From an uncultured Bacteroidales bacterium (GTDB taxonomy: Bacteria > Bacteroidota > Bacteroidia > Bacteroidales > Bacteroidaceae): a stretch of DNA of 64,000 nt. The stretch spans positions 16,265 through 80,264 of the forward strand of contig CACYLU010000004.1 in assembly GCA_902775375.1 (NCBI GenBank). The letters run 5' to 3'. This document shows, piece by piece, positions 1,726-54,858 of this stretch (position 1 is its first letter; the number at the start of each line of letters is the position of its first letter). Under the pieces are notes generated by a model, which was given only the letters and a program-made list of their open reading frames with translations, did not search any database and had not been told where the DNA came from. Position numbers and translations under genes: made by a program.

Positions 1726-2850
1726 TTATTGCCTGTCAATCTTCAGCAAGGCCCCCGTGTTTACGTCAAACAGCACTTGGGTCACCGTATTTCTGTTAAA
1801 CAGCTGGTCTGCCAGGTATTCGCGCGTGCCGAACTGAGTGAGCGACAACTCTGTATTGATGATGTCTTTATGCTGATAGGTCAGCTTCACATCAGCTTTC
1901 CCTGGCACATTGTAGGCAACACCTTCAATGGCCGACTTATTGCCATTGGTCAGTATGCTGATAATTGATCTGCTTGATTTCCCCTCTGGCTCTGCAGGCT
2001 GCTCAGGAATCAGTTGCTTGTTTACGATGCTCAGTTCAACAGGTTCGCCAGCCAGGTCGTCAGCCTCTACAAAACCCAGTTTCTTGGAGAAGCGGAATAC
2101 CACATGATTGCTCATCTCCTCGGGAGTAACTCTCTTCGTAAAATGATGTTTTTCTGTGGTAACCTTTCCCTCAAACATTTGCACCATTGCTTTCTCTTGC
2201 TTGTTCAGGTTGTCCAGCATGATTTGCAGTTGTGCACCATCCTTGGGCAGGTTTTCGGCTTCACCCCTAAGCAGGGCATTCTTGCTCTCACGAATGCTGT
2301 ATATCTCGCGAGCCACCAGCTCTGCCATCTTTGCGGTTGAGTTGGTCATCAATATTTCTTCAGTCAGGAATGTGCGAGGGTCAGGCAAAACCTCATCCTC
2401 TTGCTGTTTTGCTTGGGGCTGTTCAGCTTTTTGGTCCCCAGAGAAAGGCAGGTTGATAGACCGAACAATACCATCGGCAGTGAGTTCCATCAACGGGGCA
2501 GTGGTACGGTCTTTCATCTCTACAAAATAGATATTGGAAGGATCCGGCACACCCACAATATTTACCTTCACCTCATCCAGTGTCCACGAGGTTTCAGCTT
2601 CCTGTTTCACATCCCGCAAACGCAAGTAGCGCTCGGCATACTTGCTGAACTGTCCTGGTTCGTAGTGTTGTCGTGTCGCCTCTGCTTCGATCTTTATTTC
2701 GGTCTGGGGCAGCATGTAGGTCACCCCAAACTTCTTGCCGAAAGTAACACCTTGTGTCACTTCTGTCTGTGCATAGGACAAATTGAAAATAGATAATTGG
2801 CAATTGAAAACTATCAATGCAATTATTGTCTTTTGTATGCTCTTTCTCAT
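1726..2850 (-). CDS. DUF4831-family exported protein
   Basis: ORF 1726..2871, likely start at M8 (2850). Signal peptide ends in SYA-Q. YMLPQTEIKIEAE...Y.PGQFSKYAERYLRL pattern recognised as Bacteroidales DUF4831. Confidence 0.7.
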   Translation of the reverse strand: MRKSIQKTIIALIVFNCQLSIFNLSYAQTEVTQGVTFGKKFGVTYMLPQTEIKIEAEATRQHYEPGQFSKYAERYLRLRDVKQEAETSWTLDEVKVNIVGVPDPSNIYFVEMKDRTTAPLMELTADGIVRSINLPFSGDQKAEQPQAKQQEDEVLPDPRTFLTEEILMTNSTAKMAELVAREIYSIRESKNALLRGEAENLPKDGAQLQIMLDNLNKQEKAMVQMFEGKVTTEKHHFTKRVTPEEMSNHVVFRFSKKLGFVEADDLAGEPVELSIVNKQLIPEQPAEPEGKSSRSIISILTNGNKSAIEGVAYNVPGKADVKLTYQHKDIINTELSLTQFGTREYLADQLFNRNTVTQVLFDVNTGALLKIDRQ

Positions 2851-2860
2851 AATATCTGAC

Positions 2861-3967
2861 TTATTTCGCAAAAACTATACATACTGGCTGACTGAGGTTG
2901 ATATCGCGTTGCGTATTAAGCAGCATGCCTGTTTCTATGACCCTTTCAAATACCTCGATCTTGTTGTCATTCATATCAGCCACCAGCACATACTTGCCAT
3001 TAGGGGTGATGTTGAAATTACGAGGATGCTTGCCAGTTGGCTGATAGCCTACCTTCTCCAGTAATCCGCTTGCTTGATCCACCTTGAAGATGGCCAACCC
3101 ATCATCAGCATTACGCACGCTGGCATAGAGGAACTTGCCATCGGGTGAGAGGTGAATGTCGGCTGCATGACGATCATCCTGTGGATGTGTTTCAATGGTT
3201 TGTATCACCTGCATGTTCCCCTCGTTATAGCTGCAAACAGTCACTGCCTCGCTCAGCTCGCTGATAATATACACAAATCTCCCGTCTTTGCTGAAGATGA
3301 TGTGTCTAGGACCCGAATCTTCATTGATGGGCGTATTGTCTAACTTCAGATAAGGTTTAGTAGGATCGGCTTCCACATCAAAATGCAGGATGCGGTCGGC
3401 ACTGAAATCGGTAGCCAACAACAGCTTCCCATCAGGACTGAAGGCGGTGCAATGCACATGCGGAGTCTGCTGACGACTCATGTCAGGGCCACCTATATTG
3501 CCACAGAAGATGGTATCCACAGGTTCCAGTCCGCCATCATATCGTAGGGGAAACACTGACATACTGCCACCTGTATAGTTAGCTGTAGTAGCGATTTTGC
3601 CATTGGTGGCCACATAGCAGGGATCCTCACCGTAGGTAGGTTGTTGGTTAATCAGTTCAGCCGTACCGTCTTCTTTATTGAACTTAAAGGCAGCCAATGC
3701 TGCAGTTTCATCATTCTTCTCACTTACCACATACATCACCTGTTGGTTGGCAGAGAGGGTGAGGTAGGAGGGGTTGTCCATTTTGATTACCTCCAATGGC
3801 CTTGCTGTACCCTTTTCCTGGTCAAACTTAAAAGTGTAAATACCCTCGCTGCCGGCATTGGTATAAGTGCCCACAATCATGGTTAGTTCGTCTGTCTTCT
3901 GTGCTGTTTCGCAAGCAGTCAGTGCCAGGAGCAAACCACCTATGAAATATTTTCTTAACATAATCAT
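2861..3967 (-). CDS. Lactonase family (6-phosphogluconolactonase-like, 7-bladed beta-propeller) lipoprotein
   Basis: Motifs IVGTYT, NPSYL, ANYTGGS, PHVH, GPRHI.F..DG, AADIHLSPDGKFLYASVR, GKHPRNFNITPNG. Lipobox LLLALTAC. The ORF-track start (4039) overlaps glpF, so the start is placed at M25/M27 (3967/3961). Confidence 0.88.
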   Translation of the reverse strand: MIMLRKYFIGGLLLALTACETAQKTDELTMIVGTYTNAGSEGIYTFKFDQEKGTARPLEVIKMDNPSYLTLSANQQVMYVVSEKNDETAALAAFKFNKEDGTAELINQQPTYGEDPCYVATNGKIATTANYTGGSMSVFPLRYDGGLEPVDTIFCGNIGGPDMSRQQTPHVHCTAFSPDGKLLLATDFSADRILHFDVEADPTKPYLKLDNTPINEDSGPRHIIFSKDGRFVYIISELSEAVTVCSYNEGNMQVIQTIETHPQDDRHAADIHLSPDGKFLYASVRNADDGLAIFKVDQASGLLEKVGYQPTGKHPRNFNITPNGKYVLVADMNDNKIEVFERVIETGMLLNTQRDINLSQPVCIVFAK

Positions 3968-3972
3968 TCTTT

Positions 3973-4692
3973 CTATGCGAGTAAATACAAGCCTGCGGCT
4001 AAAGCACAACCAATGACAGGTCCCAAGCCTGGCACCCATGCATAACTCCAGTCACTGTCGCGCTTGCCCTTGATAGGCAGAATGAAATGAGCGAAACGAG
4101 GAGCCAGGTCACGGGCAGGATTGATAGCATAGCCAGTGGTTCCGCCCAATGACATACCGATGGCAACAATCAGGAAGGTGACAGGGAATGCTCCCAGGCT
4201 GCCCATGCCCATCTCTGGCGTGTTGCCCACGTTACCTATGGCAAGGATGCAATACACCAGTACGAAGGTGCCGATGGCTTCGCTCAGCAGGTTGCGCCAC
4301 TTGTTGCGGATGGCAGGGATGGTGCAGAAAGTACCCAACTTAGTGTCAGCATCAGGCGTTGCATCGTAGTGGTCTTTGAAATAGATATATACCAAAACAG
4401 CACCCACGAAGCCACCCAGCATCTGGGCAATGATATAAGGCACCACAAGGTTCCAGTCGAATGTTCCTGCTAGTGCCAAACCTATGGACACAGCGGGGTT
4501 GAGGTGAGCCCCAGTATATGGGCCAGCTACAAACACACCACACATCACGGCCAAACCCCAGGCGAAGGTTACAACCACCCAGCCGGCACCTTTGGCCTTT
4601 GATTTCTCTAAACTGACATTGGCACAAACGCCATCGCCCATCAGTATCAGAATCATCGTTCCGATGAACTCGAATATCATTTTCTCTATCAT
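3973..4692 (-). CDS. glpF: Glycerol uptake facilitator (MIP/aquaglyceroporin)
   Basis: Two NPA boxes (GAHLNPAVS, GYAINPARDLAPR), hydrophobic helices, adjacent to glpK. Confidence 0.95.
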   Translation of the reverse strand: MIEKMIFEFIGTMILILMGDGVCANVSLEKSKAKGAGWVVVTFAWGLAVMCGVFVAGPYTGAHLNPAVSIGLALAGTFDWNLVVPYIIAQMLGGFVGAVLVYIYFKDHYDATPDADTKLGTFCTIPAIRNKWRNLLSEAIGTFVLVYCILAIGNVGNTPEMGMGSLGAFPVTFLIVAIGMSLGGTTGYAINPARDLAPRFAHFILPIKGKRDSDWSYAWVPGLGPVIGCALAAGLYLLA

Positions 4693-6255: not shown

Positions 6256-7287
6256 TTAAATCCTCAATCGCCTACAGTCTTCAATCAATTCATCCACATG
6301 CGCCTCGTCAGTAGCCCATGACGTTACGAAGCGTATGGCAGAATGGTCTTTATCCATCGGTTGCCACTCTTCAAAAATATATTTCTTTGCCAGAATTGCC
6401 ATTTCCTCTTTGCTGACAATGGGGAACACCTGGTTGGTAGGTGATTCAGCTAGGAATTGGTAGCCAGCTTCCTTCAATGCTGCCGACAGTTTCTTGGCCA
6501 GCACGTTGGCCTGACGGGCAATCTTGAAATACAGGTCGTCCTTGAACAGCTCGCCAAACTGCACACCCAGCAGCCATCCCTTAGCCAGCAAGGCACCACG
6601 CTCTTTGCGCACATAATCGAAGTCAGGATACAAGTCAGGATTGTTGAACACAATAGCCTCGCCCAGCAAAGCCCCATTCTTGGTGCCGCCGATATAGAAA
6701 ACATCCGTCAGCTCCGTCAGGTCATGCAGCGTCAGGTCGTTCTCGTCTGAGGTTAGTGCACTGCCCAGGCGTGCTCCGTCAAGATAAAGCAATAGGTTGT
6801 GCGAGCGGCAGAAGTCACTGATGGCCTGCAACTCAGCTTTCTTATAAATGGTGCCCACCTCGGTGGCGTCAGACACATATACCATAGCTGGTTTCACCAT
6901 GTGCGGACGCATGAAATAGTCGTCGAGCGCTTTTTGAATCCCCTCAGGCGTCAGTTTGCCCTGTATGCCATGCACGGTGATGACACGATGTCCTGTAGCC
7001 TCGATAGCACCCGTCTCATGAGCCCAAATATGACCTCCGTCCACACAAATCACTGCTTCCGGTGTGCGCAGCAAGGCAGAGATCACCGCCATATTGGCCT
7101 GTGTTCCGCCAATTACGAAATAAATGCTTGCTTTTGGGTTACCGATGCGTTGGCGAATCAGCTCTATGGCTTCTTTTGTCACCTCATCCTCGCCATAGCC
7201 CGGATGCTGCATCAAGTTTCTCTCCTGAAGTTTCTTCAGGATATTTGGGTGTGCCCCCTCTGAATAGTCGCATGTAAAACTGTACAT
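6256..7287 (-). CDS. ltaE: Low-specificity L-threonine aldolase (PLP, beta-eliminating lyase family)
   Basis: Motifs [62 protein letters not shown]. Confidence 0.9.
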
Positions 7288-7319
7288 TCTTCTTGTTGGT
7301 TTGATTTAATAATACCTTG

Positions 7320-7327
7320 CGAAGTTA
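7320..7327 (-). promoter_or_regulatory. Bacteroidetes -7 promoter box variant (TAACTTCG) for the ltaE-glpK-glpF operon
   Basis: Plus strand CGAAGTTA, 33 nt upstream of the ltaE start. Confidence 0.55.
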
Positions 7328-7510
7328 CGTATTATTTTTCTATTATAAAAGAATATCAAGTCAAATTGTAGCGTCATACCCTTAACCCAAAGCACGTAGT
7401 AGTGCTGATGGCTGTCAGCGAAGTTAATGTCACACTCAGTCATGAAATCTACGATAACAGTGCCGATAATCAAATAGAAGCACAATAAATAAAAGCCTCA
7501 TGAACAGTCC

Positions 7511-7885
7511 AAAAGTGACAATAGTGACAATAAAAATGCGAAATCCTCATACGCGCGACATTTAGTCGGGGCTTAAATGTCATGTATAGGAAAAATTTGA
7601 TTTCCTTGAGTCATTAAAGTCATAATGTTTGCATTAGCTGCTAAATATCAACGATTTACAATGCTTGCAAAAAAGTGCCTCTTTTTATAGAGAAATCAGC
7701 CTGCTTTTACCATGAATGTAGGGCGCAAAGCCAGCAAAAAGAGCCTGCTTTCGGCAGCAAACTAATATGGCGTGAAATATTTTGCCGAGGCTTTGAGATT
7801 ATATTGTCTGAAGTTCAACTGCCATATGCGAGAAAAAAACGCTGATGTTTGTCATTTCTTGTCATTGTCGGTCAAAGATTGTCAA
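7511..7885. repeat. Structured intergenic repeat module (GTGACAATA x2 ... TTGTCA arrays, internal 22-bp-period units)
   Basis: GTGACAATA tandem at 7515-7532. Inverted TTGTCA(T) copies at 7849-7885. Internal inverted repeat GACATTTA/TAAATGTC at 7557-7581. GCCT(G)CTTT units start near 7676, 7698 and 7742 (22-bp register). Confidence 0.6.
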
Positions 7886-27836: not shown

Positions 27837-29045
<1,209 letters not shown>

Positions 29046-29066: not shown

Positions 29067-29098
29067 AAGAGGATGTGCAAATGCGCATCCTCTTTTTT
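29067..29098 (+). terminator. Intrinsic terminator after the esterase
   Basis: AAGAGGATGTGCA-AA-TGCGCATCCTCTT stem followed by a T-run. Confidence 0.85.
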
Positions 29099-29140
29099 GT
29101 TCCCATAGCTCGTATGGAGCAAGGCGGTAGCTAATGAATG

Positions 29141-29255
29141 GCTTACTTCCGCTAAGCCGTCCTTTTACTTCCGCTAAGCGGGGTGTTTACTTCTTTTTTC
29201 TCCCTCGTTAGGCTTTTATTATTCTCTCGTGAGGGAAAAATATTTTCCTAACGCT
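29141..29255. repeat. 22-bp-period repeats (TTACTTCCGCTAAG units, then CCCTCGTTAGG/CTCTCGTGAGG units)
   Basis: TTAC starts at 29143, 29165 and 29187. Second motif at 29202 and 29224. Inverted repeat CGTTAGG/CCTAACG. Confidence 0.75.
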
Positions 29256-29311: not shown

Positions 29312-29478
29312 AAAAAACTCTTCACTCTTCACGAATGTAGTGTAATATTCTGATATATAGTGTTATAAATGAGTGAAGTGTTGTGAAGTGTTGTGAAGAG
29401 TTGGTGTGACTCTTCACGCGGTAAATTGATTGTAATACAGTTATTTATACCGTATTTGTGAAGAGTGAAGACTTTTTT
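29312..29478. repeat. 167-bp element with 21-bp terminal inverted repeats (MITE-like / iteron-like)
   Basis: AAAAAACTCTTCACTCTTCAC (29312-29332) versus GTGAAGAGTGAAGACTTTTTT (29458-29478), 20/21 match. Internal GTGAAGTGTT x2 and a GTGAAGAG/CTCTTCAC pair. Confidence 0.75.
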
Positions 29479-29555
29479 ACGATTTTCATTTTTCTCTGCT
29501 CCTATCCCTTAGGAATAAACTAGGAATAATGATGTGATTTGCAATATTGCAACTC

Positions 29556-29710
29556 TATGCTTTGCGCCCTGCATCCTTGTTGTTTGCGGCTTGCCTCCTT
29601 ATGGCTTTCAGCCTGCAAACCTATGGTTTGTGCCCTACATTCATATAGCTTTCAGTCCTCAAACATATTACTAATGTCAAGCCATGCACATTACTTCCTC
29701 AAAAAAATAC
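29556..29710. repeat. Degenerate 22-bp-period tandem array
   Basis: Units start at 29556, 29578, 29600, 29622, 29644 and 29666 (for example TATGCTTTGCGCCCTGCATCCT, TATGGCTTTCAGCCTGCAAACC, TATGGTTTGTGCCCTACATTCA). Confidence 0.6.
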
Positions 29711-41536: not shown

Positions 41537-41570
41537 TATCTTTTTTCAGCTATCGTAAAATAATGTTGTG

Positions 41571-41632
41571 GCTTACTAGTAGTAAAGCCTCCTTTTACTA
41601 GTAGTAAAACGGTAGCTTACTAGTAGTAGAAG
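41571..41632. repeat. Three TTACTAGTAGTA units at 22-bp period
   Basis: TTAC starts at 41573, 41595 and 41617. Confidence 0.85.
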
Positions 41633-41752
41633 TTTCATGTGTTGATTGTTGTCACGAATCAACATTAAATGTTAGCATTTATGTTTTCGCTGCTCCAAAA
41701 TTTGTTTCTATCTTTGGATTATATTATCTTTGCGAAAAAAGGAGGCTTGTCA

Positions 41753-54588: not shown

Positions 54589-54780
54589 TCTTACAATCTT
54601 ACAATCTTACAATCTTACAATCTTACAATAAGGATGTTCCACACCATCCCATGATAGTATAAGAAGTATAATATAACATATAATTATATATTATATTATA
54701 CTTCTTAATCCATTCAGGTTATTCACACCATATATGCTAGGGCCTTAATGTAAGAATGTTGGAATGTTAGAATGTAAGAA
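54589..54780. repeat. 192-bp symmetric element: (TCTTACAA)5 - 48-bp palindrome - inverted octamer array
   Basis: Five octamers at 54589-54628. Palindrome at 54660-54707 with one mismatched pair. TGTAAGAA/TGTTGGAA/TGTTAGAA/TGTAAGAA at 54749-54780. Confidence 0.85.
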
Positions 54781-54785
54781 CGCCA

Positions 54786-54858
54786 CCTGCTTACTAGAAC
54801 TAAACCTCCTGTTTACTAGAACTAAACCTCCTGTTTACTAGAACTAAGCCGCCTGTTT
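54786..54858. repeat. 22-bp tandem repeat, 3 copies plus partial (CCTG(C/T)TTACTAGAACTAA(A/G)CC)
   Basis: TTAC starts at 54791, 54813 and 54835. Confidence 0.9.

Follow-up and report, generated by a model that had tools for sequence, protein, structure and literature searches.

Tandem 22-bp TTAC/GTAA dyads in rumen Prevotellaceae and other Bacteroidales: a candidate family of dispersed minisatellites

Described repeat systems and the arrays of the window

The element considered here is a set of tandem 22-bp repeats of the type TTACT-N5-TAA, found in a 64,000-nucleotide stretch of DNA from an uncultured Bacteroidales bacterium (contig CACYLU010000004.1 of assembly GCA_902775375.1, positions 16,265 to 80,264; the whole stretch is called the window below). 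Among described elements of the same order the nearest is BrickBuilt, and the nearest mechanistic class is that of the repetitive extragenic palindromic (REP) sequences and bacterial interspersed mosaic elements (BIMEs). BrickBuilt is a 23-nt dyad minisatellite inside a transposable element of the miniature inverted-repeat type (MITE) in Porphyromonas gingivalis, without spacers and present in 19 intergenic copies; these lie after natural terminators, vary in unit number between strains, carry a leader and tail in part of the cases and have no Rfam match (PMC4596501). The element is confined to P. gingivalis and P. gulae and reaches up to 22.8 units (PMC4596501). REP units are extragenic hairpins with a foot, a stem and a loop of 3-4 nt, arranged in tandem or alternating and numbering tens per genome (PMC6006769, PMC3733652). 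The REP-associated tyrosine transposases (RAYTs) of the Bacteroidetes-specific subclass 2.6 are flanked by atypical, weak hairpins of 21-28 nt, which also occur elsewhere in the genome and, like the units described here, lack the GTAG/CGTC foot (PMC6006769). For the arrays of the window we favour, at a probability of roughly 0.55, the reading that they are copies of a dispersed, dyad-symmetric, hairpin-type minisatellite family of rumen Prevotellaceae and other Bacteroidales, which resembles REP/BIME and BrickBuilt and grows by slippage.

The window comes from a chromosome of Prevotella type and carries housekeeping genes, and sequence identical to it occurs in the rumen metagenome-assembled genomes (MAGs) GCA_017471635.1 and GCA_017941185.1 as well as in many rumen metagenomes. 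It holds three arrays in exact 22-bp register, all of them intergenic and on the same strand as the genes on either side:

29140..29193, plus strand: array 1, reading GGCTTACTTCCGCTAAGCC-GTC-CTTTTACTTCCGCTAAGCGGGG-TGTTTACTTC
Array 1, unit 1, plus strand: GGCTTACTTCCGCTAAGCC, with 6-bp arms and a 7-nt loop
Array 1, units 2 and 3, plus strand: CTTTTACTTCCGCTAAGCGGGG and the truncated GTTTACTTC
41570..41631, plus strand: array 2, reading GGCTTACTAGTAGTAAAGCC-TCC-TTTTACTAGTAGTAAAACGG-TAGCTTACTAGTAGTAG
54786..54858, plus strand: array 3, 3.3 units of the CCTGTTTACTAGAACTAAACCT type, three of them full

The motif TTACT-N5-TAA occurs at 10 sites in the window, where 2.55 are expected, and eight of the ten fall inside these arrays. 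Two units at 22-bp spacing are matched five times, against 0.00 in 100 shuffles, the comparison suggested in a preliminary description of this DNA, whose observation of the arrays is confirmed. Two further sites, one matching the strict motif (63362) and one a relaxed form (38819), are isolated singles within or beside coding sequence. Tandem Repeats Finder reports a period of 22 at 29143-29193 (2.3 copies) and at 54786-54858 (3.3 copies). Array 1 lies 40-50 nt past the strong hairpin (29067-29094) that terminates the esterase gene. From the GH25 stop codon (41536) it is 34 nt to the start of array 2, which lies about 100 nt upstream of the TAnnTTTG-type promoter element of the DUF308-dbpA operon; the three units of array 2, with TTACT at 41573, 41595 and 41617, contain the near-perfect palindrome TTTACTA-G-TAGTAAA. 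Array 3 is located between tRNA-Pro and a glpD-like gene.

The five nucleotides between TTACT and TAA, here called the core, read TCCGC in array 1, AGTAG in array 2 and AGAAC in array 3, and are uniform inside each array. Arrays 1 and 2 have in common the scaffold GGCTTACT..TAA.GCC.TCCTTTTACT, as already proposed, and agree at about 30 positions of the scaffold apart from the cores. Neither array 2 nor array 3 shows shared flanks. Units resemble each other more within an array than between arrays, again in line with the earlier claim.

Anatomy of the unit and extent of the family

Each unit consists of a dyad, xxTTAC-T-NNN-A-G-TAAx'x', and a linker of ~9 nt that is often pyrimidine-rich (CCTCC-like). 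The arms comprise 2-3 variable outer base pairs followed by TTAC(T) pairing with (A)GTAA, around a loop of ~3 nt. Across 155 arrays, base 5 of the core is G in 70% and base 4 is A in 55%; core bases 4-5 complete the TTACT/AGTAA dyad, and therefore only about three loop bases are free. Read as duplex DNA, the same sequence presents hexamers of opposite orientation (GTTTAC/GTAAAC type) that alternate every 11 bp, as in GGTTAC-N5-GTAACC-N5 of the MAG RUG12386 or GTTTAC-tagaa-CTAAAC-ctcct of the window. The outer arm positions covary: Watson-Crick pairing reaches 0.68 at positions (-1,13), against 0.35 expected, and 0.65 at (-2,14), against 0.42, and the covariation score over 150 distinct units is 0.197, compared with 0.128 for shuffled units (a value that 0 of 500 shuffles attain) and 0.075-0.131 for slid controls. 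The arm variants GGTTAC/GTAACC, GTTTAC/GTAAAC, CTTTAC/GTAAAG, GCTTAC/GTAAGC and ACTTAC/GTAAGT are all found, several of them in a single genome. What is kept is dyad symmetry, rather than the sequence of any single half-site. The foot tetranucleotides GTAG/GTGG and CGTC are absent from the units, the linker being CCTCC-like or ACGYG. At some other loci (L219, L226, L228), adjacent units have palindromic parts that are mutually reverse-complementary, or compensatory changes of the inner stem, a pattern that would fit template switching in quasi-palindromes.

Scanning one genome per species for TTACT repeated three times at 22-bp register gave at least 113 loci, mostly in rumen Prevotellaceae and other Bacteroidales; the isolates Prevotella sp. 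ne3005 and khp7 are among the carriers. The proposal of a phased 22-bp array family is thereby upheld, with the same unit at the three loci of the window and at more than 100 loci elsewhere, and genomic copies beyond the window, on whose existence the preliminary description had made its proposal depend, have been found. The following counts were made among the matches listed: RUG12386 alone contributes more than 30 loci and other Prevotella genomes several each; 118 of 119 arrays are intergenic; 31 arrays lie between divergent, 43 between tandem and 21 between convergent genes, the remainder being at contig edges; and relative to tandem neighbours, 20 arrays are co-oriented and 19 opposed (tally). 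From an array to the downstream start codon it is tens to hundreds of base pairs, and a fixed distance to promoters or gene ends was not found. All-against-all clustering of 649 open reading frames (ORFs) from 113 loci among these matches gave no recurrent neighbour gene; tabulating flanking genes, as had been suggested, thus brought out no gene family that recurs near the arrays. In a viral collection of 2.9 million contigs, two matches to the array pattern were found. The copies in RUG12386 number dozens and have ~140 bp of conserved "leader" and "tail" flanks.

Whole units come and go between strains of the window species. Array 3 has three units in the window and at loci L208, L210 and L213, and two at L209, L211 and L212, the difference being an exact 22-bp indel; nearby, the octamer repeat (TCTTACAA)n has five or four copies depending on the strain. 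In array 2, a TAG slip is the sole difference among strains. Between species, the orthologous GH25/DUF308-dbpA site retains a three-unit array in RUG12436 and RUG828, whose DbpA proteins are 91-94% identical, with the same (C)TAGTAG palindrome and diverged linkers; the orthologous site is without an array in RUI513, RGIG6796 and RGIG9776. The sampled part of the raw-read DNA runs held no reads of the window organism.

Two claims about the cores held only in part. A core is uniform within each of the three arrays of the window, but family-wide adjacent units share it in 96 of 238 pairs (40%), and the linker in 35 of 238. Likewise, cores differ between the loci of the window, but the same cores recur at unrelated loci of other genomes: AGTAG/ACTAG at 5-7 loci, AGAAC at 3 and TCCGC at L092. 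A non-orthologous locus of RUG828 even combines TTTACTTCCGCTAAGCG (17 identical bases, core TCCGC) with the TTCTCTCG.GAG palindrome that stands beside array 1. The locus-specific five-nucleotide code that the preliminary description had proposed is not supported, given that cores recur at non-orthologous loci and that the five nucleotides consist of a variable 3-nt loop and the upper end of the stem. The shared flanks, the shared cores and the adjoining palindrome mark a dispersed modular element.

Compared with the systems introduced above, the arrays are like BrickBuilt in belonging to the same order, in being tandem direct dyad repeats at intergenic sites and in varying by strain in unit number; array 1 follows a natural terminator, and the RUG12386 copies have a conserved leader and tail. 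Unlike BrickBuilt, the unit measures 22 rather than 23 bp, no sequence likeness is seen, IS5-like terminal inverted repeats were not found for the window copies, arrays have 2-4 units, loops vary between copies, and the TTAC/GTAA family is found in many genera and species. With REP/BIME the arrays share short, multi-copy extragenic palindromes with compensatory stem variation within a genome, and array-bearing Prevotella contain an ORF of the RAYT-like HUH/Y1 type; they differ in the lack of the GTAG/CGTC foot, in shorter stems (5-7 bp) that are AT-rich and in that the RAYT-like gene is not directly flanked. The BOX elements of Streptococcus pneumoniae, boxA-(boxB)n-boxC, are likewise modular, intergenic and capable of forming stem-loops, with a central module that is reiterated variably; they differ in a boxB unit of ~45 bp and a host from another phylum, with no known relation in sequence. 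Plasmid iterons and phage tripartite operators have 3-4 repeats of ~17-22 bp phased by about two helical turns; they have their rep or repressor gene at their side and occur only a few times in a replicon, whereas the arrays have many copies in the chromosome, lack a cognate gene, vary in unit number and have arms that covary. Our survey of the literature on 22-bp repeats in Prevotella and Bacteroides found no description of the TTAC/GTAA array family.

Candidate origin and competing explanations

In the dispersed-minisatellite reading, units would multiply locally through slipped-strand mispairing, which predicts changes by whole 22-bp units such as those seen, and the family would spread from locus to locus in the manner of a non-autonomous element of REP/BIME-like or MITE-like kind. 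Cores would be identical within a locus because units multiply locally by slippage, the array being a recent tandem duplication of a single founder unit, and scaffolds would be shared between loci because the family spreads between them, reflecting common descent of the founder units. Local tandem duplication is also a simpler account of identical units than the within-locus homogenisation of a code that had been suggested. The maintained feature would be the dyad, be it as a hairpin in single-stranded DNA or RNA or through self-templated correction of quasi-palindromes, and not a code for a protein to read. The host would probably feel no more than a modest, structural effect, in the dead zone between an upstream terminator and a downstream promoter.

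One protein offers itself, weakly, as a candidate for the mobilising enzyme and is to be taken as a lead only. A profile of RayT relatives finds two ORFs of ~360 aa, at positions 2846-3988 (minus strand) of locus L034 in RUG12386 and 6537-7712 (minus strand) of L007; such ORFs are present in 2 of the 113 array loci among the matches listed, 3-6 kb from the arrays. They have HUH (PDH[IF]HG) and Y (Y..DNP) motifs as well as a C-terminal extension of ~150-200 aa and an internal low-complexity repeat, and Pfam Y1_Tnp matches the protein only weakly. The gene is conserved in Prevotella (L034, L007, L216-L232) as a single-copy, syntenic gene beside the malate dehydrogenase gene (mdh). In RUG12386 two copies of the array element, 157 nt long, inverted and 92% complementary, bracket it, and inverted copies are found 1-4 kb either side of it in RUG12386, RGIG8062 and RUG367. 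Within the window, tblastn and a profile search detected no RAYT gene, and tblastn of E. coli RayT against the collected loci was negative. Reaching the Bacteroidetes RAYTs from E. coli RayT was tried with word-indexed and full HMMER searches, which gave only relatives at least 41% identical to E. coli RayT, with HUH/Y motifs of the subclass 2.2 type. Around the RAYT-like gene of rumen Prevotella there are, in addition, other GC-rich hairpin repeat families in multiple copies (L219, L223, L224, L225, L227), for example AGCCCCCCCCTCCGCCCCCGAGGGGGCT and CCCCTCCCTGTGAGGGAGGGG.

Several observations weigh against the dispersed-minisatellite reading. No terminal inverted repeats or target-site duplications were identified for the window copies, and no pair of an empty and a filled site was found. 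The invariance of TTAC and TAA in the family statistics is a product of the search pattern itself, and as single-stranded DNA the hairpins of the window arrays are weak, at -4.9 to -11.8 kcal/mol with z-scores of -0.9 to -2.7. At the site of array 2, three species keep the palindrome together with its core, and the linkers have diverged, which hints at constraint beyond that on neutral repeat DNA. The RAYT-like protein matches the NCBIfam model NF047646, "REP-associated tyrosine transposase" (REP_Tyr_transpos), at E ~1e-11, under the curated cutoff; bracketing by the repeats is seen at 3 of 13 RAYT-like-gene loci and at none of the ten others, and the repeats are never immediately adjacent to the gene. 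Finally, a selfish-repeat model leaves the 22-bp period that unrelated repeats share (see below) unaccounted for.

The alternatives rank, from best to least surviving, as a phased operator array, an RNA-level element, independent slippage products, and iterons or transposon ends. In the first, a dimeric or filament-forming protein would bind TTAC/GTAA half-sites one helical turn apart, cooperatively and on one face of the duplex, in a regulatory or architectural role. We consider such an array unlikely, even though the register is exact both for the unit of 22 bp, about two turns, and for the inverted hexamers that alternate every 11 bp, the geometry recalls that of phage tripartite operators, and a cooperative one-face binder would need just the 21-22-bp period that unrelated palindromic units also show. 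The presence of 31 of the 95 classifiable arrays, among the matches listed, in divergent, promoter-only intergenic regions points the same way, as does the drift of linkers around the conserved palindrome of orthologous array 2. However, several arm variants coexist and covary in a single genome, as the half-site of one protein would not; unit number varies among strains of one species; orthologous sites in related species have no array; the downstream start codon is tens to hundreds of base pairs away; neither an adjacent regulator gene nor a regulon-like set of neighbours is present; and the conserved flanks in RUG12386 look like those of a mobile element. The fixed binding array of the preliminary description is not supported in view of the same facts, namely strain-dependent unit number, covarying arms, a period shared by unrelated palindromes and the lack of a fixed promoter distance.

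Alternatively, the arrays may act in RNA, as rows of small hairpins transcribed within untranslated regions, 3' or 5', that serve as terminators, 3'-end protectors or decoys, possibly via their CCUCC-like linkers. Arrays 1 and 2 do lie directly downstream of genes on the same strand, and in tandem contexts arrays are, by tally, somewhat closer to 3' than to 5' ends; the related array L223 has at its end a strong terminator hairpin, the left arm of which is formed by the repeated unit. A simple scan for intrinsic terminators makes two weak terminator-like calls within array 1, the real terminator of the esterase gene being the upstream hairpin at 29067-29094. Orientation in tandem contexts, however, is random (the 20 and 19 arrays of the tally above), one third of the classifiable arrays stand between divergent genes, and the hairpins are weak. 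In Rfam 15 only tRNAs pass the gathering threshold, and the two long intergenic regions give no match even at E up to 1. Rumen metatranscriptome contigs, which are random-primed and of low depth, end before arrays 1 and 2 and restart in the next gene; this counts weakly against an RNA element, and as evidence on transcription the assembled contigs were set aside, since they do not cover the arrays and do not exclude their transcription. An RNA-level role seems to us less likely again than an operator.

A lower chance still attaches to independent slippage, by which each array would have arisen in place, from a palindrome already there (an old terminator, for instance) that was duplicated in tandem, without dispersal and with a likeness that is convergent or compositional. 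Changes in unit number have been seen directly, many Bacteroidales 22-bp arrays have unique units, and unrelated units occupy equivalent positions upstream of dbpA and downstream of a Na/Ca exchanger gene. Such an origin does not sit well with the agreement of arrays 1 and 2 at ~30 scaffold positions outside their cores, with identical 17-nt units next to the same palindrome at non-orthologous loci of two species, with the dozens of RUG12386 copies and their ~140 bp of common flanks, or with a pattern concentrated in one bacterial order far above chance. Replication iterons or transposon-end sites (Tn7/Mu-type, 22 bp) that would mark where a mobile element ends or an origin lies are very improbable: plasmid iterons and TnsB/MuA end sites have a similar unit length and copy number (3-4 x 22 bp) and array 3 is near a tRNA-Pro gene, a common integration target, but the flanking genes are all housekeeping genes in conserved synteny with no Rep, transposase or integrase gene nearby, the three arrays lie in the same orientation ~12 kb apart within 26 kb and have no inverted partner, iterons should form one set per replicon instead of three sets in the window and hundreds of copies in related genomes, and viral contigs are nearly free of the pattern (the two matches above). 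The comparison with iterons made in the preliminary description is not supported on the same ground, the arrays being set among housekeeping genes with no replication gene alongside.

Three further candidates were rejected. A CRISPR array would have repeats of 24-48 bp with unique spacers of like length between them; here units are contiguous and the only variable part is a loop of 3-5 nt that is identical within each window array. Mimicry of tRNA anticodon loops (7-nt loops CU-NNN-RN) would give implausible anticodons, ARAGORN and Rfam report nothing there, and the true loop has 3 nt. An origin from a phage or mobile element conflicts with the two viral matches and the syntenic housekeeping flanks.

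Prevotellaceae dominate the rumen and many human gut microbiomes, and their non-coding DNA is almost unannotated. Strain-variable unit numbers would provide variable-number tandem repeat (VNTR) markers for strain typing. The arrays break short-read assemblies, with several contigs ending there, and a repeat family of this kind can lead searches for motifs or regulons astray. Should a RAYT-like enzyme take part, the REP/RAYT system would extend to an atypical form in Bacteroidota; if the arrays are plain repeat DNA, a false lead for "coded" regulatory arrays is removed.

The 22-bp period in other repeats and the neighbouring modules

The period is wider than the family. In two sets of Bacteroidales loci picked independently of repeats, 80 dbpA loci (475 kb) and 17 RAYT-like-gene loci (187 kb), repeats with a period of 21-22 and 3-4 copies are the dominant long-period tandem class, each with its own unit and usually its own palindrome. 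Over 1.57 Mb in total, after removal of arrays that match the pattern, 22 bp is the mode of the non-coding repeats (17 of 59), followed by 14 bp (8). Unrelated units are found at equivalent positions, namely in arrays upstream of dbpA in several genera and, in two Prevotella species, downstream of the Na/Ca exchanger gene beside mdh.

It is tempting to speculate, doubtful as this is, that Bacteroidales have a sequence-independent process, or a form of selection, that makes or retains arrays of 3-4 dyads with a period of ~22 bp (two helical turns) at particular intergenic positions, the sequences themselves being completely replaced between species. The TTAC/GTAA arrays would be its most prolific lineage, and they would be read by a factor specific for structure or phase, such as a domesticated RAYT-like HUH enzyme that acts on hairpins of single-stranded DNA, or an architectural protein on one face of the DNA. 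If true, this process would add to genome organisation, in a dominant phylum of gut and rumen, a layer not recognised before, and should a protein or a mechanism linked to replication lie behind the 22-bp preference, this would point to an unknown feature of Bacteroidales chromosome biology.

The intergenic region of array 1 contains two further modules:

29199..29237, strand not assigned: tail module adjoining array 1, made up of CTCCCTCGTTAGG and then a palindrome, TTCTCTCGTGAGGGAA, at 29222-29237
29558..29667, plus strand: second 22-bp array, degenerate, five units, TGGCTTTCAGCCTGCAAACCTA-like, of a different unit type

What had been taken for a second motif next to array 1 is a two-copy direct repeat, CTCCCTCGTTAGG / CTCTCGTGAGGG, spaced ~22 bp apart, with the second copy inside the palindrome TTCTCTCGTGAGGGAA. 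Palindromes of the form (A)TTCTC-N1-3-GAGAA(T) adjoin TTAC-type arrays at six loci, array 1 and, in other Prevotellaceae, L023, L043, L058, L081 and L112. Units related to those of the second array are found at L023 (586-705) and at L149, there with a TTTGC-CT-GCAAA dyad.

Between these two modules, the inverted repeats ACTCTTCACTCTTCAC (29316-29332) and GTGAAGAGTGAAGA (29468-29482) enclose a 135-bp AT-rich segment, which holds three GTGAAGTGTT decamers and a hairpin, GTGAAGAG-N9-CTCTTCAC; the fold of the region has a z-score of -5.2. At L023 the corresponding inner segment aligns in the direction opposite to its flank, as expected of an invertible segment. Alternative junctions, which do not amount to a simple inversion, are seen at 29332 and 29456 in metagenome contigs. 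GTGAAG/GTGAGG word repeats in the same layout adjoin arrays at L018, L023 and L043. No relation between the core sequence and the neighbouring short-word repeats is apparent in the sequences. ARAGORN makes four tRNA calls in the window, of which Rfam confirms three; a 90-nt tRNA-Val call at 28149-28238 (minus strand), within the esterase ORF (27912-29045), is without Rfam confirmation and probably a false positive.

Beside tRNA-Pro, next to array 3, a long imperfect palindrome at 54589-54780 sets (TCTTACAA)5 opposite (AATGTAAG-like)4. The central part between them contains an inner AT-rich inverted repeat, AAGAAGTATAATATAA / TTATATTATACTTCTT, at ~54662-54708, and the RNA fold has a z-score of -4.4. 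Modules of similar build, a word repeat, ~50-150 bp and the inverted word repeat, are found upstream of dbpA at L173 and L175, both Phocaeicola loci. A hairpin, TGTTGATT-N9-AATCAACA, separates array 2 from the promoter at 41646-41670; in RUG12436 and RUG828 (L126 and L127), the equivalent hairpin is flanked by a direct duplication that comprises ~37 bp of promoter-proximal sequence (AAATGT.AACATT.ATGTTTTCGCTGTTCCAAAATTT).

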